DNA from: an uncultured Alphaproteobacteria bacterium
GTDB taxonomy: Bacteria > Pseudomonadota > Alphaproteobacteria > Rhizobiales > Beijerinckiaceae
Direction of reading: 5' to 3'
NCBI GenBank assembly: GCA_963759985.1
Contig: CAVXBI010000002.1
Coordinates: 105,111 to 169,110, forward strand
DNA length: 64,000 nt
The notes below the pieces were generated by a model. That model saw only the letters and a program-made list of their open reading frames with translations. It did not search any database and was not told the DNA's origin. How positions within the stretch are numbered: position 1 is the first letter of the stretch; the number at the start of each line of letters is the position of its first letter. Shown one piece after another: positions 45,521 to 62,264 of this stretch. A program made the translations under genes and the position numbers.

Positions 45521-45534
45521 TTGCGCTATGTCAA
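45521..45534. promoter_or_regulatory. FixK/FNR-type box
   Basis: TTGC-GCTATG-TCAA. Confidence 0.6.
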
Positions 45535-45570: not shown

Positions 45571-46611
45571 CTAGGCCGCGATGATCACCTTCAGCGCATG
45601 CGTATCCGCCGCGCGCCTGAACGTGTCATAGGCGTCAAGAATCTGATCGAGCTTGAACCGATGCGTGATCAGGCGCGCAGGGTCGATCTTCTTCGACTGC
45701 ACCGTTTTCAGGAGCATGGGTGTCGTAACCGTATCGACCAGCCTTGTCGTAATCTCGATGTTCTGCGACCACAACCACTCCAGATGCAGATCGACCTTGC
45801 GGCCATGCACGCCGATGTTGGCAATAACGCCGCCGGGATCCACGATCTCTTCGCAGAGCTGAAAGGTTGCAGGTATTCCGACAGCTTCGATGGCGGTATC
45901 GACGCCACGTCCGCCGGTCAGCACCTTCACCGCCTCGGCGGCCTTTCCGTCCGCGCTGTTGATCGTATGCGTCGCACCGAACTGACGGGCGAGCCCAAGC
46001 CGATTGTCGTCGAGATCGATCATGATGATCATGGCTGGGGAATAGAATTGTGCCGTCAGCAGCGCCGCGAGCCCGATCGGACCTGTCCCGACGATCGCGA
46101 CCGTCGAGCCCGGCGCGACCTTGCCGTTGAGCACCCCGCATTCGAAGCCGGTGGGCAGGATGTCGCTCAGCATCACCAACGCCTCTTCATCGGCACCTTC
46201 GGGAATATGGTAGAGGCTGGTATCGGCATGCGGCGTGCGGACATATTCCGCTTGGGTTCCATCGATCTCGTTGCCGAGAATCCAGCCGCCGGTCGTGCAA
46301 TGCGAATACATGCCGCGCCGGCAATATTCGCATTTGCCGCAAGAGGTGATGCAGGAGATCAAGACTCTGTCGCCGGTCCGGAACTCGGTCACGCCGGGGC
46401 CGACGGAATCGATGACCCCGACGCCTTCGTGACCGAGGACGCGGCCCGGCGCGCAAGTCGGAACATCGCCCTTCAGGATGTGAAGATCAGTCCCGCAAAT
46501 GGTCGTCTTGACCATCTTCACGATCGCGTCACCGGGGGCCTCAATCTTGGGCTTGGGGCGGTCTTCGAGTGCCGCCTGCTGACCCGGCCCATGGTAAACG
46601 AGCGCTTTCAT
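45571..46611 (-). CDS. Zinc-dependent alcohol dehydrogenase family protein
   Basis: TICGTDLH, GHEGVG, CGKCEYC..C, GTGPIG. Confidence 0.93.
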   Translation of the reverse strand: MKALVYHGPGQQAALEDRPKPKIEAPGDAIVKMVKTTICGTDLHILKGDVPTCAPGRVLGHEGVGVIDSVGPGVTEFRTGDRVLISCITSCGKCEYCRRGMYSHCTTGGWILGNEIDGTQAEYVRTPHADTSLYHIPEGADEEALVMLSDILPTGFECGVLNGKVAPGSTVAIVGTGPIGLAALLTAQFYSPAMIIMIDLDDNRLGLARQFGATHTINSADGKAAEAVKVLTGGRGVDTAIEAVGIPATFQLCEEIVDPGGVIANIGVHGRKVDLHLEWLWSQNIEITTRLVDTVTTPMLLKTVQSKKIDPARLITHRFKLDQILDAYDTFRRAADTHALKVIIAA

Positions 46612-46668: not shown

Positions 46669-46682
46669 TTGCGCTCGATCAA
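46669..46682. promoter_or_regulatory. FixK/FNR-type box upstream of adh
   Basis: TTGC-GCTCGA-TCAA. Confidence 0.65.
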
Positions 46683-46796
46683 GTGGGACTTGGCCTGGAA
46701 TCTTCCCCTGAGCATCCTATTCTTCTGCGCTTAGGTTTTCCTGGGTGCTTGCGTTATACTAAATCATACCAATTTCATGCCTCCACCGGACCCGTA

Positions 46797-48677
46797 ATGG
46801 CTGCAGAGACAGGCCCTGATTCCGCTATTCTCGATGAGGACTCTTTACTAGCCATCGAAGCAGCCGGCGTCGGAACTTGGCGATGGGACCTCGCGACGAA
46901 TACCGTGAGCCTTTCAGCCTGTTCGCGCGAATTGATCGCCGCGCCGAACGATTGCATCGATTACCCGGAATTTCTCGCGCGGCTCCATCCCGATGATCGC
47001 GACTTGGTCGATCGTTCGCTTCGCCGGAGCGTCGCATCGGGCGAGCGACACGACGTCGCCTTTCGCCCTTTGCCAGAGGACAACAAAGAGCGTTGGCTGC
47101 GCCTGCGCGGAGGGCTTTTCGCCGATGCGGCACACCCGGTCGGGCTCCGAGGCATCCTGATCGATGTCATTCGGCGAACGGCGGACGAAGCGAATAGCCG
47201 CTTGGCCGCAATCGTTAAGTCGTCCGACGACGCCATTGTCGGGAAAACACTCGAGGGGATCGTCACGGATTGGAACCGCGGTGCCGAGAAAATTTTCGGC
47301 TATTCGGCCGAAGAGATGATCGGCAAATCCATCTCGATCCTCCTGCCGCCCGGGCATGAGAATGAGGAATCTGAAATTCTGGCGCGGCTCAAATCGGGCG
47401 AGCGGGTCGAACATTTCCAAACGCGGCGCCGACGCAAGGATGGCGAGATCATCGATGTGTCGCTGACTGCATCGCCTCTGCGCGATGCTTCCGGGCGCCT
47501 CATCGGGGCATCGAAGGTCGCCCGCGATATCACCGCTGCAAACCGTTCGCAGACCACGCTCGCCGAGCGCGAAGCGCACCTGCGATCCGTCCTTGACACG
47601 GTTCCCGACGCCATGATCGTGATCGACACGCAGGGTATCATGCAGTCGTTCAGCGCTACCGCCGAACGCCTCTTCGGCTATACGGCCGCGCAGGCGATTG
47701 GCGAAAATGTCAAAATCCTCATGCCGTCACCTTATCACGAGCAGCACGACAACTATCTGGGCCGCTATCTTGCGACGGGGGAGCGACGCATCATTGGGCT
47801 CCGCCGGATCGTCGTTGGGCGCCGCAAGGACGGCTCGACCTTTCCCATGGAGCTTTCGGTCGGTGAGATGCGATCCGGCGACCGACGTTTCTTTACCGGT
47901 TTCGTGCGTGACCTGACCGAGCGCCGGCAGACCGAGCAGCGCCTTCATGAATTGCAGAAAGAGCTCATCCACATGTCGCGGTTCACGGCGCTGGGGGAAA
48001 TGGCGTCGACGCTGGCGCATGAGCTCAATCAGCCCCTTACGGCCGTCGCCAATTATCTGAAAGGCGGCCGCCGCCTTCTCGAGGCCGGCCAGAGCAACAA
48101 TATCCCGATGGCGCGCGAGGCTATGGAGCGCGCGGCAGAGCAGGCGCTGCGGGCCGGACAGATCATCCGGCGCCTGCGCGAGTTCGTGGCCCGCGGTGAA
48201 AGCGAGCGGCAGGTCGAGAACCTCGTCAAGCTGATCGAGGAAGCGAGCGCGCTCGCTCTCGTCGGCGTCAAGGAGAGCGGCGTGCGGGTTTCCTTTGCAT
48301 TCGATCCACGCGTGGAATTCGTCCTCGCCGACAGGATTCAGGTCCAGCAGGTGCTGCTCAATCTGATGCGCAATGCCGTCGAGGCGATGCAGGAGATGCC
48401 CAAGCGCGAACTGAATGTCTCGACCCACCAACTTGACAGTGAGACCGTGCGGGTCGACGTGGGCGATACCGGGCCGGGCATCGCTTCCGACATAGCGGAT
48501 CAGCTGTTTCAGCCTTTCATCACGACGAAACGGCACGGCATGGGAGTTGGCTTGTCGATTTCGCGGACGATCATCGAATCGCATGGCGGGCGCCTCTGGG
48601 CCGAGCCAAATGCCGGCGGCGGAACTGTCTTCCGACTGACCCTCAAGACGATCGGGAACCTTGGCGATGGCAACTAG
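46797..48677 (+). CDS. fixL: Oxygen-sensing heme-PAS histidine kinase FixL
   Basis: Multiple PAS domains, [13 protein letters not shown] heme ligand region, [16 protein letters not shown]. Confidence 0.92.
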
Positions 48678-49287
48678 CGCCGTTGTGCATCTGATCGACG
48701 ACGATGAGGGAGTGCGGCAGTCTCTGGCCTTCCTGCTGACGACGGCGGGGCTGGCGGTGCGCGTCTACAAGTCGGGCGTCGCCTTTCTCGCCGCGGTCGA
48801 CAGTCTCCAGCCGGGTTGTGTCGTCAGCGACGTGCGCATGCCGGGGATCGACGGATTGGAACTGCAACGCCGTTTGAAGGAGCTAGGCGTGCATCTGCCG
48901 GTGATTATCATCACCGGCCATGCCGATGTCCCGCTGGCGGTCGAGGCGATGAAGGCAGGTGCCATCGACTTCATCGAAAAGCCCTTCGACGATGAACTGT
49001 TGCTCGGCGCTATCCGGGTGGCGCTCGACCGTTATGACGAGATCGGCCACCGAGACACGGAAGTCGCGCAGATCCATGCAAAGCTGCAGTCACTTTCCGC
49101 CCGCGAGCGAGAAGTACTCGATGGGCTGTTGGCGGGCTATCCGAACAAGACGATTGCCTATGATCTGAAGCTAAGTCCGCGGACGATCGAAGTGCATCGC
49201 GCCAACGTCATGACAAAGATGGGAGCCACCAGCCTCTCCGGCCTTGTGCGCATGGCTCTGCTCGCGAAAGTGCTGCCCGCCCGCTGA
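48667..49287 (+). CDS. fixJ: Response regulator FixJ
   Basis: [38 protein letters not shown]. Confidence 0.95.
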
Positions 49288-49322
49288 CTTTGCCGGACCC
49301 AACGCGGCTCTGCCCCACCTCC

Positions 49323-49336
49323 TTGCGCTACATCAA
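49323..49336. promoter_or_regulatory. FixK/FNR-type box between fixJ and single-domain regulator
   Basis: TTGC-GCTACA-TCAA. Confidence 0.65.
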
Positions 49337-49410
49337 GGTTGAGCAGACCCGATGTCCTTATCATTTTTCCGTGATGCAAGACCGACTGGCTAGTCGGCTG
49401 GAGCGGAGTA

Positions 49411-49806
49411 ATGACCAAGGGACAGGATATCGTTTTGGTCGTCGATGACGATTTGGCCGTGCGCGAATCCCTCAAGTTCGCATTGGAACTCGAGGGGCTG
49501 GCCGTCCGCGCCTTCGGAAGCGGCAATGAATTGTTGGCGCACGCCGATCTGCCGCAGGCGCGCTGCCTCATCCTGGATTACAGGATGCCGGTCATGGACG
49601 GATTCGAGGTTCTCGACCGCTTGGCCGATCGGCATGTTCGGCTTCCGGTCATTCTCATCACCACCGATGCGACGAGCGCAATCCGCCATCGTGCGGCAAC
49701 TCGCGGGGTTCGGCACGTGCTCGAAAAGCCGCTCTCCGACAGCACCCTCGTGGAAAATATTCAAGACATTTTGGGCCGCCAAAAAGGAGCGGCGACTAGA
49801 ATCTGA
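49411..49806 (+). CDS. Single-domain response regulator
   Basis: VVDDD, LDYRMP, VLEKP; lies between fixJ and fixK as in Bradyrhizobium. Confidence 0.88.
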   Translation: MTKGQDIVLVVDDDLAVRESLKFALELEGLAVRAFGSGNELLAHADLPQARCLILDYRMPVMDGFEVLDRLADRHVRLPVILITTDATSAIRHRAATRGVRHVLEKPLSDSTLVENIQDILGRQKGAATRI

Positions 49807-49946
49807 TGCTTTTTCAGTCTGTTGCTGATTTCGGAAGCGACGCCTAAGGCTCGCCTGTTCGTAGAATCCCCTAGGACCTAACTCAATTTTCCGTCGAGGC
49901 CGCGACCCTTACAGAGAGCGAACATTCCTTGCGGTAGGAGGTCTCG

Positions 49947-50651
49947 ATGTCGACACAACTCGCTTACTCGACCGATCGCGCAGCTTCGACGGCCCCGGCT
50001 ATTGTGGCACGAGGCCCTTGGACGAGAACATCGATAGAGGATACGCCGGATCGGGACGGCGGCTTGAGCATGACGGCCGGGCCGGTGCAGCATTTCGGTC
50101 AAGATCAGGAGATTTACGGCGAAGGCGATCCCGCCGGTACCTTCTTTAAGGTCGTGTCGGGTGTTGTGCGCACGTGCAAGTTTCTGAGCGATGGGCGGCG
50201 GCAGATCGATGCCTTCTATATCGCCGGAGATATCTTCGGCTTGGAGGCCGGCGCGGAATACACGCTCTCGGCCGAAGCCGTCTGCGATTGCACCGTCGTT
50301 TCGTATCGCCGGCGCGGCAAGCCGGCCGCGAATGACGAGTCATTTTCACACCAGTTTTTCTCCTACGCGATGCGGAGCCTGGCGCGGGCGCAAGAACATG
50401 CGCTGCTGCTCGGGCGCAGAAGCGCCGTTGAAAAAGTCGCCGCATTCCTCATCGAGTGGGCGGGCTATTCGCCTGACAGCAAGGTCATCAGCTTGGCCAT
50501 GACGCGCCAGGATATCGCCGATTATCTGGGACTCACTATTGAGACGGTGTCACGGACATTGTCGCAACTGGAACGCAACTCCTTCATTGAAGTCGCTGCG
50601 CGCATGATCCGGGTGACCAATCCGACCGCGCTGCGCAATCTCAATTGCTAG
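49947..50651 (+). CDS. fixK: Crp/Fnr regulator FixK (no Fe-S Cys cluster)
   Basis: DGRRQI.AF...GDIFG, DIADYLGLTIETVSR recognition helix. Confidence 0.93.
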   Translation: MSTQLAYSTDRAASTAPAIVARGPWTRTSIEDTPDRDGGLSMTAGPVQHFGQDQEIYGEGDPAGTFFKVVSGVVRTCKFLSDGRRQIDAFYIAGDIFGLEAGAEYTLSAEAVCDCTVVSYRRRGKPAANDESFSHQFFSYAMRSLARAQEHALLLGRRSAVEKVAAFLIEWAGYSPDSKVISLAMTRQDIADYLGLTIETVSRTLSQLERNSFIEVAARMIRVTNPTALRNLNC

Positions 50652-51314: not shown

Positions 51315-52328
51315 CTAGTGGTAACCGATATCGCCTCGGACCTTGCCGCGGAAGACCCAATAGGACCATGCCGTATAAAGCAGGATCACGGGCAGCAGCA
51401 CGAGCGTACCGATAAGCAGGAAATTCTGCGTGCTTTGCGAAGAGGACGCCTGCCAGAGCGTAAGATGATAGGGCACGATCATCGGCCAGAGGCTGATGGC
51501 AATGCCAAGGTAGGACAAGAGAAACAGCAGGACCGCCGCCACGAATGGCGAGCCTTCCGCCTCGCTGTTGAGCGCCCGCCATTCCCAGAAGGCGACGAGC
51601 GCAGTCACGACCGGCACCGGCGCGAGAAAGACGATGTTGGGCCAGCTGAACCAGCGCGTGGCGATCTCATGGTTGGTCAGCGGAGTCCAGATGCTGACGA
51701 TGCCGATTGCGGCGAGGACGCCGATCAGGCACCAGCGCCCCTGCTGCCGGGCGCGCGCCTGCAATTGCCCTTCGGTCTTCAAGATCAGCCAACCGGTGCC
51801 GAGAAGGGCATAGCCGAAAACCAGAGCCACCCCGGTCAGAATCGAGAACGGCGTAAAGCAGTCGAGGGATCCGCCGGTGAAAGCTTGGCCGTCGGTTCGA
51901 AAGCCTTGAATGAAGGCGCCGAGGACAATGCCTTGCGCGAAGGTCGCGATGGCCGAGCCGTAGCAGAAGGCGTGATCCCAGAAAGTGCGATGCTCGGCGT
52001 CGCGAAAACGGAATTCGAAGGCGACGCCACGAAAGATCAGCGCCAACAGCATCAACGCCACCGGAAAATAGACGGCGGGGATGATGATGGCAAAGGCCAA
52101 CGGGAAAGCGGCGAGCAACCCGACGCCGCCGAGGATCAGCCAAGTCTCGTTGCCGTCCCAGACCGGGACGATCGTGCTCATCGCCAAGTTGCGCGATGTC
52201 CGGTCGCCGATGAAGCCATAGAGAATACCGACGCCGAGATCGAACCCGTCGAGCAGGACATAGAGGAAGATGCCGACGCCGAGTATGATCGTCCAGACCG
52301 GTACCAGATCCAAGGTGAACAGGCTCAT
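51315..52328 (-). CDS. cydB: Cytochrome bd ubiquinol oxidase subunit II
   Basis: YVLLDGFDLGVG, PVWDGNETWL, LIFRGVAFEFR, YWVFRGKV. Confidence 0.96.
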   Translation of the reverse strand: MSLFTLDLVPVWTIILGVGIFLYVLLDGFDLGVGILYGFIGDRTSRNLAMSTIVPVWDGNETWLILGGVGLLAAFPLAFAIIIPAVYFPVALMLLALIFRGVAFEFRFRDAEHRTFWDHAFCYGSAIATFAQGIVLGAFIQGFRTDGQAFTGGSLDCFTPFSILTGVALVFGYALLGTGWLILKTEGQLQARARQQGRWCLIGVLAAIGIVSIWTPLTNHEIATRWFSWPNIVFLAPVPVVTALVAFWEWRALNSEAEGSPFVAAVLLFLLSYLGIAISLWPMIVPYHLTLWQASSSQSTQNFLLIGTLVLLPVILLYTAWSYWVFRGKVRGDIGYH

Positions 52329-53734
52329 GGCTGGCCTCCTTCGCTGCTGGGCGCGGCAGGAAGCGCGTAGACGGGCTGCTCTGGTCGACCGCTCTCGATC
52401 GGCTCATCGGGAACGGTCGTGTCCGGGCCGCGCCGCAGGATCCGGGCCATGATGATGAGGCCGGCTGGGAAGATGATGAGATAGACGATGACGTAACCGA
52501 TGAAGGAGAGGAGCACGTCGGCACCGGTCAGCGAGGGCGTTACGGAATCGACGGTGCGCAGCAATCCGTAGACGGTCCAAGGCTGACGCCCGACCTCGGT
52601 CGTCGTCCAGCCGGCAAGCACGGCGATGAATCCCAGGGGCGCGGCAATCTCGCAGACCTTCAGAAAGAGGCGGTTGTCGTAGACCCGCCCGTTTGGCCGC
52701 ATAAGATTGCCGATTGCTACCAGGGCAAGCATCAGAAAGCCGATGCCGACCATGATTCTGAATGTCCAGAAGACGATAGGTGAGTCGGGCCGGTCTTGCG
52801 GCGGGAAGTCGTCCAGACCGTGAATGCTGCCATCCCATGAGTGGGTCAAGATCACACTGCCGAGGTGCGGAATCTCGATCTCGTCGAGCGTCGCCGCGTC
52901 TTTCATATCCGGCCAGCCGAACAAGATAAGCGGCACGCTCCCGCCTGGTTTGGCCCCCCAATAGCCTTCCATCGCGGCGATCTTGGCCGGCTGATATTTG
53001 AGCGTGTTGAGCCCGTGCAGGTCGCCGAGGAAGAATTGCAGCGGGACGAGCACGAGCAGAAGCCACAGCGTCGTTGACAGGATGACCCGGCCTTCCTCGA
53101 GGAATTGGCCGCGCCGGATCAGATAGGCCGCCACGCCCAGCACCACAAATCCTGTCGTTACGTAGAAGGCGCAGACCGTGTGGGTGAGACGATAGGGAAA
53201 GGATGGATTGAAAATGATCTGCCACCAGTCCTTCGGGAAGAAGCGCCCATCGATCAAGGCGTAGCCGGCCGGAGTTTGCATCCAGCTGTTGACCGACAGG
53301 ATCCAGAAGGCGGAGAAGAGCGTGCCGAACGCGACCATGAGCGCGGCAACGAAATGCATCCAAGGCGGAACCAGCCGGCGACCGAAGAGGAGCACGCCGA
53401 GGAAAGTGGCCTCGAGGAAAAAGGCGGTCAGGCCTTCATAGCCGAGCAGTGGAGAAAGCACGTTGGCTGTCGCCAGCGAGAAACGGCTCCAGTTCGTGCC
53501 GAACTGGAACGGCATGACGATGCCGGACACGACGCCCATCCCGAATGCGACAGAAAAGATCCTGATCCAGAAGGTCGAAATTCGGAAATAGACTTCACGC
53601 TTCGTGAAGAAGTGCAGACCCTCCATGAATGCGATAAAGGAGGCGATGCCGATCGTGAAGGCCGGCAGCATGACATGAAAGGCGACGACCCAGACGAATT
53701 GCAATCGCGATAACAGAATCGGGTCGAGAGACAT
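52325..53734 (-). CDS. cydA: Cytochrome bd ubiquinol oxidase subunit I (short Q-loop, CIO-like)
   Basis: SRLQF..FH, GIVMPFQFG, YEGLTAFFLEA, QPAKIAAMEG, EVGRQPW. Confidence 0.96.
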   Translation of the reverse strand: MSLDPILLSRLQFVWVVAFHVMLPAFTIGIASFIAFMEGLHFFTKREVYFRISTFWIRIFSVAFGMGVVSGIVMPFQFGTNWSRFSLATANVLSPLLGYEGLTAFFLEATFLGVLLFGRRLVPPWMHFVAALMVAFGTLFSAFWILSVNSWMQTPAGYALIDGRFFPKDWWQIIFNPSFPYRLTHTVCAFYVTTGFVVLGVAAYLIRRGQFLEEGRVILSTTLWLLLVLVPLQFFLGDLHGLNTLKYQPAKIAAMEGYWGAKPGGSVPLILFGWPDMKDAATLDEIEIPHLGSVILTHSWDGSIHGLDDFPPQDRPDSPIVFWTFRIMVGIGFLMLALVAIGNLMRPNGRVYDNRLFLKVCEIAAPLGFIAVLAGWTTTEVGRQPWTVYGLLRTVDSVTPSLTGADVLLSFIGYVIVYLIIFPAGLIIMARILRRGPDTTVPDEPIESGRPEQPVYALPAAPSSEGGQP

Positions 53735-53789
53735 TATCCCCTCCAAAACGGTCTTTGCCTGCGCCAGCTCGCCACTCCGCGCTCAGGAC

Positions 53790-54209
53790 CTAAGCGGCCT
53801 TTGTCGTAGGGTGAGCATCCTTGTTCTGCCGTTTGATTTCCTCGGCCGTTTGGCGGGCGAATTCATTGAGCTTCTCGCTCATCTCAGTCCATGTTTTGGT
53901 CTGCAGCGAAAGATTTTCGGACAGATTTGCGATGAGACTCGATTCGGCACCAAGCAGATCCTTTGTCGCGCGGACGCGGAGCATTTCGGAAAATGTCCGG
54001 GCCATCTCTTCATTTGCAGCAAGCAAGGTCTTGAGTTGAAGATGCGATGCCTCGCCATAGATCGTCTGCAGGTCGGTGGCCAATTTCTGGAAACGTTTGA
54101 TCTGCTCCGATGCGGCGCCGATTCCGTTAATGTTTGGAATGCCCCACCAAGTCAGTAGGGCATTAACCCGCTTCAGATTGCTGGCAATACTTTCTGCCAT
54201 CTTATCCAT
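53790..54209 (-). CDS. Phasin-like helical hypothetical protein
   Basis: AGGAGG SD, amphipathic helical composition, PHB gene context. Confidence 0.55.
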   Translation of the reverse strand: MDKMAESIASNLKRVNALLTWWGIPNINGIGAASEQIKRFQKLATDLQTIYGEASHLQLKTLLAANEEMARTFSEMLRVRATKDLLGAESSLIANLSENLSLQTKTWTEMSEKLNEFARQTAEEIKRQNKDAHPTTKAA

Positions 54210-54250
54210 CGTTTCCTCCTTCTTGTGTTTATTCCCGCGTAAAATCCCCG

Positions 54251-54974
54251 TCATTCCAGATATTTTCCGCCGTTGATTGAAAGAGTCGTCCCGGTGATGA
54301 AGCCGGCATCATCGGCAACGAGAAAGAGAACGCCACGCGCGATCTCTTCGGGTTTCGCGAGCCGCCTCATCGGTATGCCAGCCACGATGCCGGCGACGAT
54401 ATTCGCGGGAACCGCACGAACCATTGCGGTGTCGGTATATCCCGGAGCGATGGCGTTCACCGTAATCCCGCGTGCAGCGCCTTCAAGCGCGAGCGCCTTG
54501 GTGAACCCAATGATGCCTGCCTTCGCCGCCGAATAGTTCGTCTGGCCGAATTGGCCCGACAGGGCATTGACGGAACTGATGTTGACGATCCTGCCGAAAC
54601 GACGCTCACGCATTCCGCCGATTACGGCATGGGACATGTTGAAACAGCCCCCGAGGTCAACGTCGATCACGCTGCGCCATTGTTCGGGCGTCATCTTGTG
54701 CAAGGTGCTGTCGCGGGTGATGCCGGCGTTGTTGACCAGGATTTCGATCGGTCCCATCTCTTTGACGATCGAGTCGACGCCCTTCTTGACTCGCTTCGAA
54801 GTCGGCCACGTCCCAACTTCGTACCGGAATCTTGGTCTCGCTATTGAAGGCCCTGGCATCTGCGTCATTTCCAAAATAGTTCACGGCGACCGAATAGCCA
54901 GAACTCTTGAGGAGCCTGGCAGTCGCGGCGCCGATGCCGCTGACCCCTCCGGTAATCAAAGCAATCCTGCCCAT
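54251..54974 (-). CDS. phbB: Acetoacetyl-CoA reductase, apparent +1 frameshift near 54790
   Basis: ALITGGVSGIG, VNNAGITRD, GQFGQTNYSAAK, SINGG. Confidence 0.92.
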
Positions 54975-55049
54975 CTTGATCTCTGCGTGAAACCCGCGAC
55001 CAACGTTTGTCTTGCAGTTGATCTTGAAATCCTACCCGCGCGGAAATGC

Positions 55050-55430
55050 CTACGACTGCTTCGAGGCTTGATGCAGCGCTTCGGAATAGATGCCGAAAAG
55101 TTTCCATCCATAGTCCTTGTAGAGGTCGTTGATGTGCCGCATCTGCGTGACCATGCGATCCGTGCGATCATGCAGCTGATCGCAATAAGTGGAAATCGTC
55201 TCGCCCGGGTCTTCTCCGATCTTGACGGGAAACAGTGATTTGGTGGCTTGCTCGGTTTCGAGACGAAGCAACTCTGTCTGGCTCTCCCAGACCGATCGGG
55301 CGGTTTTAACCATGAGTTCGTTGAGCCGTGTGAACAGCGCGACGCCGCGCTCCTGCGCCCCGACGATATTGAATGGAATTTGCGTTTCGGCCGACGAATC
55401 CTTTGCCGCCGTCTGGGTTTTGTCGAGCAT
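55050..55430 (-). CDS. Phasin family protein
   Basis: AGGAG SD, helical phasin-like pattern; divergent from phaC. Confidence 0.65.
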   Translation of the reverse strand: MLDKTQTAAKDSSAETQIPFNIVGAQERGVALFTRLNELMVKTARSVWESQTELLRLETEQATKSLFPVKIGEDPGETISTYCDQLHDRTDRMVTQMRHINDLYKDYGWKLFGIYSEALHQASKQS

Positions 55431-55488
55431 AGTCTCCTCCTGTATTTGGGCTGGAGGCGAAAAAAGACATGCATTAACGGTGGCGGCA

Positions 55489-55692: not shown

Positions 55693-57574
55693 ATGCCGGA
55701 GTTACGCCTTGCCAAACAACGTGTTGGCCTTGATTTCGCGCTCCGAAGCAGGGAGCGTTAGCGCTACGGAGGCTGGCGCGGACTCACCGTCGCGCGATGG
55801 CTCGCACCCGAAGGAGGGTGATTCTGCAAAATCCGGCCTCGTCCATTCGCCCGCGCAAAAGAATCCGGCCCCCAAGTCGGTATCAGCCTGCGCCAAGGAG
55901 GATTCGCTCGATCGGCTTCTGCATGCGCGTGAGGCGCGCTTCACCGGCTCGCTATCGCTGATATCCTTGCGGCTCGCCTTTCTGGATTGGATCCTGCATC
56001 TCGCCAACGCCCCAGGACGGCGCCTCCAGCTGGCCGAGTTCGCGACGCACCAATGGGCGCGGCTCGCCACGCCTACGCAATGGACGAAGCCGCTGCCTGG
56101 AGATCATCGCTTTAGCGACCCCGCATGGTCGTATCCGCCGTTCAATTTCATCGCGCAGTCATTTCTGCTGGGCGAAGAATGGTGGCATGCCGCCACGGCT
56201 AGTCTGCCCGGCGTAACAAAGTCTCACAGCGATGTTGTCGCCTTCACGGCGCGGCAGATTTTCGACGTCTTCGCGCCGTCGAATTTTCCTTGGACCAACC
56301 CCGAAGTGCTGAGAGCGACGAAGGCGCAGCATGGCTGGAATTTCGTGAGGGGCTACCAAAATCTCCTGGAAGATTTGCAGCGCTTGGCGAATGGCCTTCC
56401 GCTTGACGATGACGCGAAAGGCTTCGAGGTCGGAAAAGATGTCGCAGCGACGCCGGGCAAGGTTGTCATGCGCAACGAACTCATGGAGCTGATCCAATAT
56501 CAGCCGACGACAGCCACTGTCCGCCCCGAGCCGATCCTGGTCGTTCCTGCCTGGATCATGAAATATTATATTCTCGACCTTTCGCCGCATAATTCATTTA
56601 TCGGCTATCTGGTCTCGCAGGGCTTCACCGTCTTTTGCATTTCCTGGCGCAATCCCGGCGCTGAGTTGCGCGACATCGGGCTCGAAGATTATAGGCGCCT
56701 CGGGCTTATGGCCGCCCTCGATGCGGTCAGGGCGATTTGCGGCGACCACAAAGTGCATGCTTGCGGCTATTGCCTCGGCGGCACATTGCTCGCCATCGGC
56801 GCTGCCGCCATGGCGCGCGACGGAGACGACCGTCTCGCGAGCGCGACCATGCTTGCGGCGCAGACGGACTTCACGGAAGCCGGCGAGTTGCAGCTTTTCA
56901 CGGACGAAAGCCAGTTGGCATTGCTCGACGACGTGATGTGGCAGCAGGGCTATCTGGACAGCACGCAGATGGCGGGTGCTTTTCAGATGTTGCGACCTAA
57001 CGATCTCATCTGGTCGCGTCTCATCAAGAGCTATTTGTTGGGCGAGCGGGAGCATCCTTTCGACCTGATGGCCTGGAACGCGGACGCGACGCGCATGCCC
57101 TTCCGCATGCATTCCGAATATCTGCACCAAATGTTCCTCAACAACGACCTCGCCGAAGGCCGCTACGAGGTTGAGGGCCAACCGGTTGCGATCTCCGAAA
57201 TCCACGTGCCGATCTTTGCCGTAAGCACCGAGACGGATCACGTCGCGCCCTGGCGCTCGGTCTATAAGATCCACCTGCTCAACCAGGGTGATATAACTTT
57301 TGTGCTCACCTCGGGCGGGCACAACGCCGGGATCGTCAGCGAACCGGGGCACAAGGGTCGGCATTTCCGTATAGCCCATAGGGCGCGACTCGCGCCCTAT
57401 GTCGCGCCGGAAGCTTGGATGGCCACCGCAGCGGAACGCGAGGGCTCCTGGTGGCCGGTTTTGGTTGCCTGGCTGAGCGAACGCTCCGGTGATCCGATCG
57501 CGCCGCCGCCGCTTGGAGCCAAGGCCTATCCCGCCGTCGCCGACGCGCCGGGCACTTATGTGCGCGAGACCTGA
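55693..57574 (+). CDS. phaC: Class I PHA synthase (possible +1 frameshift ~55708 after ATG 55693)
   Basis: GYCLGG lipase box, WIMKYYILDL, WNAD.TRMP, DHVAPW, SGGHNAG. Confidence 0.95.
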
Positions 57575-57589
57575 GCGAGGAAAATTCTG

Positions 57590-59017
57590 ATGGATGCCGC
57601 GACTCCCGCATCGGACGGGATGATCGAGAACCGGACCTTCGATGAGATCGCTATCGGCGAAAGCACCAGCATCTCGCGCAAAGTGACCCAGCAGGACATC
57701 GATCTTTTCGCCGTGATCTCGGGCGACGTCAATCCGGCTCACATGGACCCGGCCTATGCGGCGACCGACATCTTCCACAGGGTGATCGCGCACGGCATGC
57801 TGGGCGCCGGCCTGATCTCCGGCGTTCTTGGTACTAAATTGCCTGGGCCGGGGACGATTTATCTCGGCCAAGATCTCCGTTTCCTGCGCCCGGTCAACAT
57901 TGGCGATACGATCACTGCGACCCTGAAGGTGACGGAAAAGCATCCGGAGAAGGGCGATCTCATCCTCGATTGCCGCTGCACCAACCAAAGCGGCGAACTC
58001 GTTATCAGCGGAACGGCGCATGTGCGAGCTCCGCGCGAGAAGATACGCCGCCCGCGCGTCGAGCTGCCGGATGTGCTTTTGAGCCGGCACGAACAATTCC
58101 GCGCGCTCTTAGCGGCGGCGGCGGGACACGAGCCCCTGCCGACCGCCGTCGCTCATCCTTGCGATGCCAATGCGATTGGCGCGGCAGTTGAAGCGGCGCA
58201 TGCCGGCCTTATCGTGCCGATCCTGGTTGGGCCGAAGGCCAAGATCCTCAAAGCCGCAGAGGCTGCCAAGGTCGATATTTCGGGCTTTCGGCTGGTCGAT
58301 GCGCCGCATAGCGATGCGGCGGCCGCGGCGGCCGTGGCCCTCGTGAAAACGGGCGAGGCGGTCTTGCTGATGAAGGGCTCGCTGCATACCGACGAACTGC
58401 TTCATGCCGTGCTTGCGCCGGAGGCCGGACTGCGCACGGAGCGTCGGCTCAGCCATGTCTATCTGATGGACGTGCCGAGCTATCCGCGTCCTCTGCTCGT
58501 GACCGATGCAGCGGTCAACATCGCCCCAGATCTCGAACAGAAACGCGACATCATCCAGAACGCCATCGACCTTGCCCACGTCATGGGAATCGAATGTCCG
58601 AAGGTTGCGGTGCTCTCGGCGATCGAGACAGTCAATCCGAAGCTGCAATCGACCCTCGATGCCGCGGCGCTCTGCAAGATGGCGGATCGCGGCCAGATCA
58701 CAGGCGCTTTGCTCGATGGACCGCTCGCTTTCGACAACGCGGTCAGTCCGGCGGCCGCTGCGGAGAAGGGGATCGTCTCCAAGGTTGCAGGGCAGGCCGA
58801 TATTCTCATCGTTCCTGACATCGAAGCCGGCAATATGCTCGCCAAACAGCTCACGTTTCTGGCCGGGGCGGATGCAGCCGGCGTCGTTCTTGGCGCGCGG
58901 GTACCGATCATTCTGACGAGCCGCGCAGATGGGGAGCGTACGCGCATGGCCTCTTGCGCCGTCGCGGTGTTGATTGCCAGACGCGCGGCCGCCGCGCGGA
59001 AACCCGTTGGGGCATAA
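57590..59017 (+). CDS. Bifunctional MaoC-type enoyl-CoA hydratase / phosphate acetyl(butyryl)transferase
   Basis: SGDVNPAH, AHGM hydratase motifs; MKGSLHTDEL, TDAAVNI, DGPLAFDNA, EAGNMLAK, ILTSRAD. Confidence 0.93.
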   Translation: MDAATPASDGMIENRTFDEIAIGESTSISRKVTQQDIDLFAVISGDVNPAHMDPAYAATDIFHRVIAHGMLGAGLISGVLGTKLPGPGTIYLGQDLRFLRPVNIGDTITATLKVTEKHPEKGDLILDCRCTNQSGELVISGTAHVRAPREKIRRPRVELPDVLLSRHEQFRALLAAAAGHEPLPTAVAHPCDANAIGAAVEAAHAGLIVPILVGPKAKILKAAEAAKVDISGFRLVDAPHSDAAAAAAVALVKTGEAVLLMKGSLHTDELLHAVLAPEAGLRTERRLSHVYLMDVPSYPRPLLVTDAAVNIAPDLEQKRDIIQNAIDLAHVMGIECPKVAVLSAIETVNPKLQSTLDAAALCKMADRGQITGALLDGPLAFDNAVSPAAAAEKGIVSKVAGQADILIVPDIEAGNMLAKQLTFLAGADAAGVVLGARVPIILTSRADGERTRMASCAVAVLIARRAAAARKPVGA

Positions 59018-59019
59018 GC

Positions 59020-60219
59020 GTGGCGGATGCGGTTCTGACCCTGAATTCAGGCTCGTCGAGCATCAAATTTTCGCTCTTCGAAGTGAGCGGTCTCGATCGC
59101 TTGACTTTCGCGGCTAAGGGCGAGATCGAGGGAATCGGCTCGGCACCGCATTTTTTCGCACGCAATGCGGAAGGCGTGGCACTCGCCGAAAGGCGCTGGC
59201 CGGATCCAAACCAGGACTTCCAGTCGCTTCTTGAAACGGTGATCGATTGGACCGAGACTCATCTCGGTGGCGATCATCTGATCGCCGTTGGTCATCGCGT
59301 GGTGCATGGCGGCCCCGATCATTGCCGACCGGGAAGAGTGACGCCCGAACTCCTCGCGGCGCTCGATCGCCTGACGCCGCTCGCCCCCCTGCACGAGCCG
59401 CATAACGTCGCGCCGATCCGCGCTATCGCCGCGACGCGGCCGAACCTACTCCAAGTTGCCTGTTTCGATACGGCCTTCCATCACACCATGCCGGTCGTTG
59501 CGACCCGCTTTGCGCTGCCACGCGAATATGAGGCGGCCGGGGTGCGCCGCTATGGCTTCCATGGTCTGTCATATGAATATATCGCGGGTCGGCTGCGTAA
59601 TGTCGCTCCGGCCCTTGCCGCAGGGCGGGTTATCGCCGCGCATCTCGGGAACGGCGCGAGCCTTTGCGCCATGCATGCCGGCCGCAGCATCGACACGACA
59701 ATGGGGTTTACGGCGCTTGACGGACTCGTGATGGGAACGCGCTGCGGAAATATCGACCCCGGCGTCATCCTCTATCTCGAAGAAGAACGGGGGATGGCAT
59801 CCAAGCAGATCCAGGACCTTCTTTATCTGAAGTCTGGGCTCCTCGGCGTCTCCGGTGGGATCGCCAGCGACATGCGCACGCTTCTTTTGAGCAGCGATCC
59901 GCGCGCGACCGAAGCCATCGAACTTTTCGTCTATCGAATCGCCCGCGAGATCGGCGCGCTCACGAGCTCGCTCGGCGGCCTCGACGGTCTCGTTTTCACC
60001 GCTGGGATCGGCGAGCATGCGCCGGCGATTCGCGCGGCCGTCTGCCGGCGCCTTGCTTGGCTCGGCGTCGCAATCGACGCGGAAGCAAACGACCGCAACG
60101 CCACACGGATCAGCACCCCGGCGAGCCGCATCGCCGTCCACGTAATCCCGACCAACGAGGAAGCGATGATCGCCCGGCACACGCTCGATACGATCGGCGC
60201 GCCGACGCCGGCGGCATGA
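59020..60219 (+). CDS. ackA: Acetate/propionate family kinase
   Basis: LNSGSSSIK, GHRVVHGG, FDTAFH, RRYGFHGLSY, HLGNGAS, FTAGIGE. Confidence 0.95.
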   Translation: MADAVLTLNSGSSSIKFSLFEVSGLDRLTFAAKGEIEGIGSAPHFFARNAEGVALAERRWPDPNQDFQSLLETVIDWTETHLGGDHLIAVGHRVVHGGPDHCRPGRVTPELLAALDRLTPLAPLHEPHNVAPIRAIAATRPNLLQVACFDTAFHHTMPVVATRFALPREYEAAGVRRYGFHGLSYEYIAGRLRNVAPALAAGRVIAAHLGNGASLCAMHAGRSIDTTMGFTALDGLVMGTRCGNIDPGVILYLEEERGMASKQIQDLLYLKSGLLGVSGGIASDMRTLLLSSDPRATEAIELFVYRIAREIGALTSSLGGLDGLVFTAGIGEHAPAIRAAVCRRLAWLGVAIDAEANDRNATRISTPASRIAVHVIPTNEEAMIARHTLDTIGAPTPAA

Positions 60220-60254
60220 CTAGATCAAGGCACAACCTTTAAGGAATTTCAGAA

Positions 60255-61055
60255 ATGTCGAACGCTATCGAAGTGGCGCAAGCCGCGCCTCTCGTTGATT
60301 TGCGCGGCAAGCGGGGTCTCATCATCGGGATCGCCAATGAGCATAGTATCGCGGCAGGTTGCGCCGAGGCCTTTGCTCGGACCGGTGCGCGGCTCGCGGC
60401 GACCTATCTCGATGCCAAGGCGGAGCCCTTCGTTCGCGCCGTGACCGACCGGCTCGGCTGCGAGCTCGTCCTGCCTTGCGACGTGCGTATCCCGGGACAG
60501 CTTGAGGATGTGTTCGCTGAGATCAAGGCGAAGTGGGGCGGCCTCGACTTTCTTCTGCATTCGATCGCCTTCGCGCCGCGCGAGGATCTGCATGGCCGTG
60601 TGACCGACTGCTCGGCCGCGGGCTTCGACATCGCCATGAATGTCTCCTGCCATTCTTTCATTCGTATGGCCCATCTCGCCGAGCCTTTGATGCCGGGCGG
60701 CGGCTGTCTTCTGGCCGTGACTTTCTATGGGTCGGAGCGGGTCGTCGCGCATTACAATCTCATGGGGCCGGTCAAAGCGGCGCTCGAGAGCAGCATGCGC
60801 TATGTCGCGGCCGAGCTCGGCCCCAAAGGCATCCGGGCGCATGCGATTTCGCCGGGTCCCATCCGGACGCGGGCGGCGAGCGGCATCGAGCAGTTCGACG
60901 AGTTGCTGGAAGAGGCGGCCGCCCACACCCCGGAGCATCATCTGGTCGACATCCAAGACGTCGGCAATCTCGCCGCTTTCCTGGTCAGCGATGCCGCTCG
61001 CAGGATCACAGGCACGGTCATCCCGGTCGATGGAGGGGAACATTTAACCGCCTAG
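60255..61055 (+). CDS. fabI: Enoyl-ACP reductase FabI-like
   Basis: GIANEHSIA, LHSIAFAP, YNLMGPVKAALE, ISPGPIRTRAASG. Confidence 0.9.
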   Translation: MSNAIEVAQAAPLVDLRGKRGLIIGIANEHSIAAGCAEAFARTGARLAATYLDAKAEPFVRAVTDRLGCELVLPCDVRIPGQLEDVFAEIKAKWGGLDFLLHSIAFAPREDLHGRVTDCSAAGFDIAMNVSCHSFIRMAHLAEPLMPGGGCLLAVTFYGSERVVAHYNLMGPVKAALESSMRYVAAELGPKGIRAHAISPGPIRTRAASGIEQFDELLEEAAAHTPEHHLVDIQDVGNLAAFLVSDAARRITGTVIPVDGGEHLTA

Positions 61056-61133: not shown

Positions 61134-61964
61134 GTGGCCTTTACGACCTTGATGGTGCGTTTGGAGCTTGGGCATTCGAACGCAAACCTTCTCAAAATCG
61201 TTGGCCATCTTGCGGAACGATTCCGCGCCAATGTCATCGGCATTACCGCCTGCCAGCCGATCGAGACGGCTTACGGCGACAGCTATCTTGCCGGCCCTTT
61301 CGTCGCGCAAGATCGCGACGAGATTGAAAAAGAAATCAAGGCCGCCGAGGTCGAGTTCCGAAGCGCGCTCTGCGCCTGCGCCGGCAATCTCGAATGGCGC
61401 GCGACGGTGACGTTTGCGCCGCTTTCCGAGTATGTGGCGCAGGAGGCGCGCAGCGCGGACCTCCTGATAACCGGAGCGGATTCCGGGCGGCCGTTGTTGG
61501 GCGGCTCAAGATATCTCGACACGGGCGACCTGGTCATAAGGCTGGGGCGGCCCGTCCTGATCGTTCCGGCCGGTGCAAACGAGCTGAAATTGGAGCATGT
61601 CGTCGTCGGATGGAAGGAGACGCGCGAGGCGCGTCGGGCCGCCGCTGACGCCCTGCCGTTTTTGCGAGTTGCCAAGCGGGTGACGGTCGTCGAGATTGCG
61701 GACGAGGAGAATCGGGCCTCGGCTCGCGCCCATCTCGATGACGTCGTGAGTTGGCTCAAGCGACACGATATTTTGGCAAAGCCGCTGGTGTCGGCGGCGA
61801 AGCGCGACGATGCCGGCCAACTTGATGCGATCACCCGGGAATTGCGAGCCGATCTCGTCGTTGCCGGTGCCTATGGTCACAGCCGGATGCGCGAATGGGT
61901 GCTTGGCGGGGTAACGCGCGATCTTCTGCTCTGCGCCGACACGTGTTCACTCGTATCTCACTGA
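61134..61964 (+). CDS. Tandem-domain universal stress protein
   Basis: VVGWKETREARRA..DALP, DLVVAGAYGHSRMREWVLGGVTR. Confidence 0.93.
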   Translation: MAFTTLMVRLELGHSNANLLKIVGHLAERFRANVIGITACQPIETAYGDSYLAGPFVAQDRDEIEKEIKAAEVEFRSALCACAGNLEWRATVTFAPLSEYVAQEARSADLLITGADSGRPLLGGSRYLDTGDLVIRLGRPVLIVPAGANELKLEHVVVGWKETREARRAAADALPFLRVAKRVTVVEIADEENRASARAHLDDVVSWLKRHDILAKPLVSAAKRDDAGQLDAITRELRADLVVAGAYGHSRMREWVLGGVTRDLLLCADTCSLVSH

Positions 61965-62015: not shown

Positions 62016-62264
62016 ATGACGGACATCATCGTCAGTGCCGACTTATGGTCGACAGGTATGCTGCCAGAAGGCATCGTGGAAAAGTGGTTTGTCGCCGATG
62101 GAGCCGTCGTCAAGGAGGGCGATCCGGTTGCGCAGGTAAAAATTGAAGATGCGCGCCATGAACTGATCACGCCCGCAGCGGGACGGCTCGTTATCCTGTC
62201 GGTCCCCGATAGTATCGTCGAACCGGACTCCGTGATCGGGCAGGTCTTTCCATTTGCTGCGTGA
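62016..62264 (+). CDS. Stand-alone biotin/lipoyl-fold protein lacking the attachment lysine
   Basis: EGIVEKWFVADG..V..GD, (D/E)K replaced by ED, PAAG. Confidence 0.8.
   Translation: MTDIIVSADLWSTGMLPEGIVEKWFVADGAVVKEGDPVAQVKIEDARHELITPAAGRLVILSVPDSIVEPDSVIGQVFPFAA

Follow-up and report, generated by a model that had tools for sequence, protein, structure and literature searches.

We analysed a four-gene operon in a 64,000-nucleotide stretch of DNA (the window; contig CAVXBI010000002.1, positions 105,111 to 169,110 of the forward strand, assembly GCA_963759985.1) from an uncultured alphaproteobacterium of the Beijerinckiaceae. The genome amounts to 3.1 Mb in 5 contigs, is 93% complete and has Methylovirgula-like soil metagenome-assembled genomes (MAGs) as its closest relatives. 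Between 55.4 and 61.1 kb of the window, closely packed on the plus strand, lie genes for a polyhydroxyalkanoate (PHA) synthase (PhaC), a fusion of a MaoC-type hydratase with a phosphotransacylase (MaoC::PTA_PTB), an AckA-family kinase and a FabI-like short-chain dehydrogenase/reductase. With intergenic gaps of 15, 2 and 35 nucleotides (nt) this set is a real four-gene operon, and the phaC-maoC/pta-ackA-fabI set pointed out in the first-pass annotation, made earlier from the sequence alone, is confirmed.

The boundaries of the operon were re-examined. The end coordinate given earlier, 61055, was correct and is the end of the fabI-like gene. The start had been put at 55693, where the ATG is out of the phaC frame and meets a stop after 22 codons; the phaC frame begins at a TTG, with GGAG 6 nt upstream (Table 1). 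The kinase gene most likely starts at the GTG located 2 nt past the stop codon of the fusion gene, and the start of the maximal open reading frame (ORF) at 58954 is probably too early. A terminator scan returned matches no more numerous than in shuffled sequence, with no convincing terminator within the operon.

The four encoded enzymes

The PhaC protein matched PF07167 (2.7e-57) and PF00561, and contains a GYCLGG lipase box together with Cys355, Asp510 and His538, which were conserved in 52 homologues. Its best NCBIfam match was the class I synthase model TIGR01838, with 552.1 bits, under the cut-off of 622.65. Identity to a third PhaC encoded on contig C1 of the same genome was 44%, and the window protein is a divergent PhaC of a second type.

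The fusion protein of 475 residues comprises a PhaJ/MaoC domain (approximately residues 10–165) and a Ptb-like phosphotransacylase domain (approximately residues 165–470), and passes the NF006045 and PRK11890 subfamily models, which carry the NCBI name phosphate acetyltransferase. The hydratase half (PF01575, 4.9e-23) matched the solved structures 5CPG (1e-38) and 1IQ6 (1e-29), aligned without gaps to these (R)-specific hydratases and has the catalytic Asp and His residues (GDVNPAH). At the positions aligned with the pocket residues Ser62, Leu65 and Val130 of the C4–C6-specific Aeromonas enzyme 1IQ6, Ser, Leu and Val are found. These three residues (Aeromonas caviae numbering) we take, from the mutagenesis literature, to be those which close the short-chain C4–C6 acyl pocket of PhaJ, and the hydratase half of the fusion is predicted to keep that pocket. 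The transacylase half gave 1.4e-70 against the solved phosphotransbutyrylase (Ptb) structure 7VG9 and approximately 1e-12 against the best phosphate acetyltransferase (Pta), and scored 325 bits with the Ptb model TIGR02706 compared with 64 bits for the Pta model TIGR00651. The Ptb score is under the curated equivalog cut-off of 410.5, and the domain is best placed, as judged by these models, nearer to the Ptb than to the Pta branch.

In addition to its match to PF00871, the kinase scored 484.5 with NF005462, for which the cut-off is 486. Asn7, Arg91, His123, Asp148, His180, His208, Asn211 and Arg241 (Methanosarcina thermophila numbering) are all present, and the catalytic residues were conserved in 68–74 of the 74 kinases found linked to fusion genes. 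Pro232 is replaced by Ala in 69 of these 74, and three further changes near the active site (N124Q/E, T182L and H184Y) are specific to the subfamily and occur in nearly all of them. P232A was considered as a marker of butyrate use and rejected, as it was found throughout the subfamily, including phosphoketolase loci without fabI. The subfamily changes are seen in loci with and without fabI, and for this reason are no marker of butyrate use.

The FabI-like protein matched PF13561 (1.5e-83) and keeps an invariant Tyr156-x6-Lys163 motif. Lys201, Arg204 and Lys205 of Escherichia coli FabI have been implicated in docking of the acyl carrier protein (ACP) (PMC6916556), and in a gapless alignment these three residues are replaced by Glu, Asp and Glu while Leu195 is replaced by Arg. 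Asp204 and Arg195 were each found in 33 of 33 operon-linked copies. Leu195 and Arg204 are retained in this genome's two housekeeping FabIs, which are 44–47% identical to the FabI-like protein. An independent check was made on 301 genomes drawn evenly across the phylum, in which the family model separated a high-scoring group, with more than 400 bits, from a housekeeping group at approximately 330–345 bits. Arg195 with Asp or Glu at 204 was present in all 23 proteins of the high-scoring group, 14 of which were encoded within 1.5 kb of ackA, the fusion gene or phaC; housekeeping FabIs retained Arg or Lys at 204. The branch separating the FabI-like clade from the housekeeping group had a Shimodaira-Hasegawa-like approximate likelihood ratio test (SH-aLRT) value of 99 in a quick maximum-likelihood tree. 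A homologue approximately 59% identical is present on Sinorhizobium megaplasmid or chromid records.

Since acidic residues stand where the acidic ACP should dock, ACP dependence is disfavoured, and the acidic patch would argue strongly against an ACP-dependent enzyme. The first-pass annotation had named ACP specificity of this protein first among the outcomes that would undo its proposal of a butyrate route, and with the basic docking patch gone the sequence appears to decide this point in its favour. A literature search for members of the FabI-like clade found no paper on one; the S. meliloti FabI study is restricted to two chromosomal enzymes (PMC11616126). What is new here, at the level of predicted function, is the reversal of the ACP-docking charges with an invariant Arg195 in the FabI-like clade, the short-chain PhaJ pocket and the Ptb-like affiliation of the transacylase.

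Conservation, low-oxygen control and genome context

A scan of one genome per species revealed approximately 570 loci with the fusion gene. Locus counts given here refer to 82 loci, 80 which were retrieved (L011–L090) and the two copies of the genome itself. The fusion protein is 68–94% identical in the 80 retrieved loci, which come from Alpha- and Gammaproteobacteria and a Binataceae MAG, and its carriers include Beijerinckiaceae, Acetobacteraceae, Bradyrhizobium, sphingomonads, Caulobacteraceae and Rhodanobacteraceae. The fusion gene was followed by ackA in 75 of the 82 loci, preceded by phaC in 52 and accompanied by a FabI-like gene in 33. A phosphoketolase gene occurred with fusion-ackA in 18 loci and an alternative F-type ATPase operon with the fusion gene in about 14, while P-type ATPases and pairs of a PAS kinase and a Crp regulator were also recurrent. 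This gene linkage is not chance. The module is real, modular and mobile, with the fusion and kinase genes as its core and phaC and fabI as frequent additions. The tree of the linked FabI-like clade is discordant with taxonomy, placing Bradyrhizobium with Rhodobacteraceae and Lysobacterales with Methylovirgula, and because it mixes distant taxa in this way it indicates that the module has probably been passed on repeatedly by horizontal transfer. The cluster had previously been called widespread in rhizobia; widespread it is, in a range that extends by such transfer across the Proteobacteria.

Rhodanobacter-type and other loci (for example L069:11164-13587, L070:13208-14677, L043:12284-12991) have a phosphoketolase and a full alternative F-type ATPase operon after fusion-ackA, often with a P-type ATPase. 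One possible reading is that ATP from substrate-level phosphorylation energises the membrane at the ATPase-linked loci.

Only three perfect TTGAT-N4-ATCAA boxes are present in the 64 kb, two of which lie between phaC and the divergent unit and the third directly after fabI (Table 1). Box 2 overlaps the sole sigma-70-like promoter match of the phaC upstream region, and paired boxes in a similar position were found in the close relatives L012, L013 and L049 and in the second copy of the operon (OWN5). Of the 75 loci that could be evaluated, 32 had a strict FNR/FixK box (TTGA-N6-TCAA) at the first gene; the density of such boxes within these loci would lead one to expect approximately 4. The fixLJ-fixK genes are 5–9 kb from the operon, and the FixK-like Crp protein has an E--SR recognition motif and no N-terminal FNR-type cysteine cluster. 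The location of the operon inside a FixLJ-FixK island, and its predicted low-oxygen control by FixLJ-FixK, are well supported. The hypoxic setting proposed in the first-pass annotation is borne out by the boxes here and in the related loci, and by similar gene sets of Rhodobacter sphaeroides and Burkholderia cenocepacia, described below, that belong to a low-oxygen regulon or are induced at low oxygen.

Table 1. Features of the operon and its surroundings in the window
Feature	Position	Strand	Evidence
phaC, class I-like PHA synthase of second, low-oxygen type	55709..57574	+	PhaC_N, PHBC_N and Abhydrolase_1 domains
PhaJ/MaoC::Ptb-like fusion	57590..59017	+	NF006045, 757 bits (cut-off 282)
AckA-family acyl kinase (PRK07058 subfamily)	59020..60219	+	PF00871, 3e-112
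FabI-family enoyl-thioester reductase, predicted CoA- rather than ACP-dependent	60255..61055	+	NF005717, 421 bits (cut-off 337)
FixK/FNR-type box 1, TTGATCTTGATCAA	55489..55502	.	Perfect TTGAT-N4-ATCAA; divergent promoter region upstream of phaC
FixK/FNR-type box 2, TTGATTGGCATCAA	55565..55578	.	Approximately 140 nt upstream of phaC
FixK box 3, TTGATCGGAATCAA	61059..61072	.	Directly after fabI stop, ahead of universal stress protein gene
Universal-stress-protein-like gene with own FixK box	61152..61964	+	Weak Usp match; start ATG 61152
Phasin-like gene, divergent from phaC	55050..55430	-	Phasin_2, E 2e-4, 21.8 bits, below gathering score
phaB-like acetoacetyl-CoA reductase	54251..54974	-	TIGR01829, 286 bits, C-terminal part
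Second, weaker phasin-like gene	53790..54254	-	Phasin_2, E 0.066 only; homologue on C5 island
cydBA, cytochrome bd oxidase, downstream in divergent unit	51315..53746	-	PF01654, 7e-152; PF02322, 4e-94
fixL-like PAS histidine kinase, fixJ-like REC-LuxR regulator, fixK-like Crp regulator	46683..50651	+	Domain architectures
Zn-dependent alcohol dehydrogenase family gene	45571..46611	-	Degenerate FixK-like box, TTGCGCTCGATCAA, at 46669-46682, approximately 58 nt upstream of start

Divergent from phaC, the phasin-like gene adjacent to the boxes was kept in the same place in 11 loci; the ORF 54956-55432, a candidate for the gene upstream of phaC, is an Arg-rich shadow frame and was discarded. The frame of the phaB-like gene is split by an extra base at 54786, which was located by comparison with the intact copy on contig C5. 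Contigs assembled from short reads of two soil metagenome runs, at approximately 3x depth each, are without this base. The idea that phaB is a pseudogene was therefore dropped: the extra base is most likely an assembly error, and phaB intact. A nitroreductase gene also lies left of the operon, beyond cydAB. The Zn-dependent alcohol dehydrogenase (Zn-ADH) described earlier as FixK-boxed is present, preceded by a degenerate rather than a perfect box. Degenerate boxes of the form TTGCGC-N4-(A/G)TCAA, at 45521, 46669 and 49323, make up a second class beside the three perfect ones, and precede a small ORF region, the divergent region between Zn-ADH and fixL, and fixK, respectively. The universal stress protein (USP)-like gene after fabI has paralogues on contigs C2, C5, C4 and C1 and is followed by a gene for a small, stand-alone protein of biotinyl/lipoyl fold (62016-62264; Biotin_lipoyl, 3.9e-07).

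The whole operon is duplicated on contig C5, with identities to the window copy of 64% for phaC, 85% for the fusion, 77% for the kinase and 86% for the FabI-like protein. This second copy, with two FNR-type boxes, lies in a hypoxia-type island (approximately 48.7–78 kb of C5) in which there are also two phaB genes, phaA, a phasin-like gene, USP genes, a phosphoketolase and a PhaZ depolymerase. The phosphoketolase (66683-68996) was matched in two overlapping pieces meeting near 67419-67426, which suggests a frameshift or other single-base assembly error. A third PhaZ-type depolymerase, on contig C1 (673303-674470), has an internal stop and was matched in two to three pieces; it is either broken or mis-assembled. 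The two operon copies contain the only Pta/Ack genes of the genome. An AMP-forming acetyl-CoA synthetase is encoded separately from the operon, so the operon is not needed for acetate activation. No crotonyl-CoA carboxylase/reductase (Ccr) was found in the genome. A search of plasmid DNA returned distant relatives only (71–76% identity), and the window is not a known plasmid. No RNA run was listed as containing this stretch.

Interpretation of the operon

Substrate-level phosphorylation and redox balance at low oxygen, around acetyl-CoA, hydroxybutyryl-CoA and poly(3-hydroxybutyrate) (PHB), is the best-supported account of this operon. We propose, with a confidence that stops a little short of even, a branched form of this account that includes butyrate, in which a FixLJ-FixK low-oxygen module would turn acyl-CoA into acid and ATP around the PHB node. 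When respiration is limited, a short acyl-CoA would be converted to the acyl-phosphate by the Ptb-like domain and then to the free acid, with formation of ATP, by the AckA-family kinase. In one branch acetyl-CoA would leave as acetate through the operon enzymes, and this acetyl branch is almost certainly real, given the phosphoketolase linkage, the pocket residues of the kinase and the Pta/Ack activities that have been reported. In the other, (R)-3-hydroxybutyryl-CoA derived from PhaA and PhaB or from stored PHB would be converted to crotonyl-CoA by the fused PhaJ domain, the FabI-like enzyme would reduce crotonyl-CoA to butyryl-CoA with NADH, acting on the CoA ester and not on ACP, and butyryl-CoA would leave as butyrate with a further ATP. 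PhaC, PhaB and the phasin-like proteins would supply the PHB pool, which could serve either as another electron sink or as a source. The reactions can be summed in redox balance, such that 2 hydroxybutyryl-CoA would give 2 acetate, 1 butyrate and 3 ATP. The direction of flux may depend on conditions, carbon excess leading to PHB and butyrate as electron sinks and anoxic starvation to dismutation of PHB to acetate and butyrate.

The butyrate branch has the support of four independent features: a PhaJ domain of the short-chain type, a Ptb-like transacylase domain, a FabI clade of the CoA type and the lack of any other evident consumer of crotonyl-CoA. We regard it as a plausible, accessory branch across the family. 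From the genes only, we infer which substrates the transacylase, kinase and reductase would use, which way the flux would run and that butyrate would be excreted. A bolder proposal would be that the operon works with PhaA, PhaB and a thiolytic depolymerase as a self-contained route of PHB fermentation, used on loss of oxygen by an obligately respiring, methylotroph-related soil bacterium, and that the PRK07533 'FabI' clade consists of unrecognised NADH-dependent crotonyl-CoA reductases working outside fatty-acid synthesis; this we consider doubtful.

Several observations weigh against a butyrate-forming role. Of the four residues that form the acetate pocket in the Methanosarcina enzyme, the kinase retains three, Val93, Leu122 and Phe179, and the one change in its pocket, P232A, is not tied to the presence of fabI. 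It is not a butyrate kinase (Buk), scoring 38 bits with TIGR02707 where the cut-off is 289, and no butyrate kinase was found in the whole genome. Of the 18 loci with phosphoketolase next to fusion-ackA, 13 were without phaC or fabI in the stretch examined, and the substrate at the phosphoketolase-linked loci is presumably acetyl-phosphate. The fabI-like gene is missing from about 60% of the loci and is accessory in the module, and the acidic residues at its ACP site make use of ACP unlikely but do not prove use of CoA. The two phasin-like genes and phaB beside the boxes suggest that PHB synthesis as an electron sink is at least as much involved as PHB breakdown. In Methylocystis, fermentation of PHB for maintenance ATP was reportedly proposed by Vecherskaya in 2009. 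Such a fermentation proposed for Methylocystis parvus was disallowed by a genome-scale model (PMC6554988), and the relatives of these enzymes in S. meliloti have been described as a phosphotransacetylase and an acetate kinase (Summers 1999, cited in PMC8231600). The reaction chain drawn in the first-pass annotation, from (R)-3-hydroxybutyryl-CoA to butyrate and ATP, agrees with the features that could be checked (PhaJ pocket, Ptb affinity, lost ACP patch) and is weakened by a kinase of the acetate/propionate family, the lack of Buk and the accessory nature of fabI.

These points bring up the alternative that the operon handles acetate only, which is possible although we think it unlikely. The Pta-like domain and AckA would then interconvert acetyl-CoA, acetyl-phosphate and acetate without any butyrate, ATP would come from overflow, or acetyl-phosphate from phosphoketolase would be taken to acetyl-CoA, PhaB and PhaC would lay down PHB as a low-oxygen electron sink, and the hydratase and FabI-like enzyme would merely trim the pools of (R)-3-hydroxyacyl-CoA and enoyl-CoA. 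The phosphoketolase linkage, the acetate-type kinase pocket, the presence of a single type of Pta-Ack pair in the genome and the phasin-like, phaB and phaC genes around the FixK boxes all agree with this, and the genes are so interpreted in the lxa and Burkholderia papers (PMC3721108, PMC8231600). It leaves unexplained, however, that every locus has a short-chain (R)-hydratase joined to the transacylase, that this transacylase is Ptb-like and that a FabI clade without the ACP patch travels with the kinase, and it gives crotonyl-CoA no other evident fate in a genome from which Ccr is missing. Another alternative is that the FabI-like protein is an ordinary enoyl-ACP reductase isozyme, serving fatty-acid synthesis at low oxygen and placed in the operon incidentally. 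The protein does pass the cut-off of a model named 'enoyl-ACP reductase FabI' and its catalytic motif is intact, but the charge is reversed at all three ACP-docking positions, Asp204 and Arg195 are invariant, the genome already has two housekeeping FabIs, and in distantly related taxa the clade remains linked to ackA and the fusion gene, with a tree discordant with taxonomy; we find this explanation hardly credible.

The remaining alternatives differ in the direction of flow or in the acid released. The kinase and transacylase reactions are reversible, and external acetate, butyrate or 3-hydroxybutyrate could be taken through them to the CoA ester and into PHA by PhaC, in a manner resembling the engineered Buk-Ptb-PhaC route. 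Storage of acetate as PHA has been proposed in the Burkholderia review (PMC8231600), acetate feeding into PHA is mentioned in the lxa paper (PMC3721108), and phaC is the first gene of the operon. Uptake is nevertheless improbable in our view: a separate AMP-forming acetyl-CoA synthetase is present, ATP spent on storage would be costly under limited respiration, a FabI-type reductase works in the direction of the saturated ester and would be of no use in converting butyrate to 3-hydroxyacyl-CoA, and energy conservation agrees better with the linkage to alternative ATPase operons and USPs. We give little credence to direct release of the hydroxyacid, in which thiolysis of PHB would yield (R)-3-hydroxybutyryl-CoA, then 3-hydroxybutyryl-phosphate and finally 3-hydroxybutyrate and ATP, in a redox-neutral sequence with the hydratase merely equilibrating crotonyl-CoA. 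Such a route would account for the phaC loci without fabI (19 of 82) and for the fusion of hydratase and transacylase as consecutive steps, and several residues near the active site of the kinase do differ from acetate kinases. Its energetics are marginal by our own estimate, at one ester bond per ATP, no evidence was found in this analysis that the kinase family uses hydroxyacyl-phosphates, and the FabI-like enzyme, present in both copies of the operon in this genome, would be left unused.

The branched scheme with butyrate bears on how strict aerobes survive anoxia, which matters in waterlogged soil, peat, root nodules and infected lungs. The value of the present finding lies in a sharpened prediction, namely that the FabI clade with the reversed ACP patch and Arg195 prefers crotonyl-CoA over crotonyl-ACP. 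If this signature holds true, the name 'enoyl-ACP reductase' is wrong for a protein of many genomes, an anaerobic source of ATP is missing from metabolic models of the carrier bacteria, and engineered butyrate or butanol pathways could draw on a reductase independent of oxygen.

Comparison with known systems

The gene order has already been described and the cluster itself is not new. Group D pha clusters of Burkholderia sensu lato contain the same set, phaC, a phaJ-pta fusion, ackA and fabI, together with phaB or adh, and have likewise spread horizontally (PMC8231600). The present operon, unlike these, stands in a FixLJ-FixK context, and its host, a relative of Methylovirgula, is a small alphaproteobacterium of soil. 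The Burkholderia review considers that the cluster widens the substrate supply for PHA synthesis, and proposes neither butyrate formation nor a CoA-dependent FabI (PMC8231600).

Low-oxygen control of similar gene sets has been determined in other bacteria. In B. cenocepacia J2315 the phaB, phaC, pta/ptb, ackA and Zn-ADH genes of the lxa locus were induced 75- to 242-fold at low oxygen, and this locus aids the anoxic survival of an aerobe, as tested at the level of the locus and not of the enzymes; its authors did not decide between fermentation and the supply of PHA as the role of the acyl-phosphate enzymes (PMC3721108). The lxa gene classes (phaB, phaC, phosphate acetyl/butyryl transferase, acetate kinase, Zn-ADH, nitroreductase, USPs and FNR-type motifs; PMC3721108) are also found in the window. 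The lxa locus, however, is a 50-gene island rather than one phaC-to-fabI operon, and the parts of that paper available to us list no FabI among its induced genes (PMC3721108). Rhodobacter (Cereibacter) sphaeroides has the same gene types, RSP1257-RSP1254, under a regulator of the FNR family, and RSP1254-1257 (phbC, enoyl reductase, pta and ackA) belong to the FnrL regulon as determined by experiment (PMC2908626 Table S2); there the regulator is the oxygen-sensing FnrL, whereas here it is FixK under FixLJ, and the gene order differs. FixK2 targets phaC2 in B. diazoefficiens (PMC10888616). The orfA-pta-ackA-fabI genes of S. meliloti, with which the Burkholderia review compares its clusters, form one transcript under the control of PhoB and of phosphate stress (Summers, Denton and McDermott 1999, cited in PMC8231600). 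They share pta-ackA-fabI with the window, but their control is by phosphate stress, not oxygen, and according to the same review the first gene encodes no true PhaC, with 2–24% identity to PhaC (PMC8231600).

The clostridial butyrate pathway (Thl-Hbd-Crt-Bcd/Etf-Ptb-Buk) has the same overall chemistry as that proposed here, from acetoacetyl-CoA to butyrate and ATP, and the homology of its Ptb to the transacylase domain is real. In contrast to the clostridial route, the intermediate here would be the (R)- and not the (S)-hydroxy compound and a hot-dog hydratase would stand in for crotonase, while a FabI-family short-chain dehydrogenase/reductase would take the place of Bcd/Etf or of Ter-type reductases, and an AckA-family kinase that of Buk.

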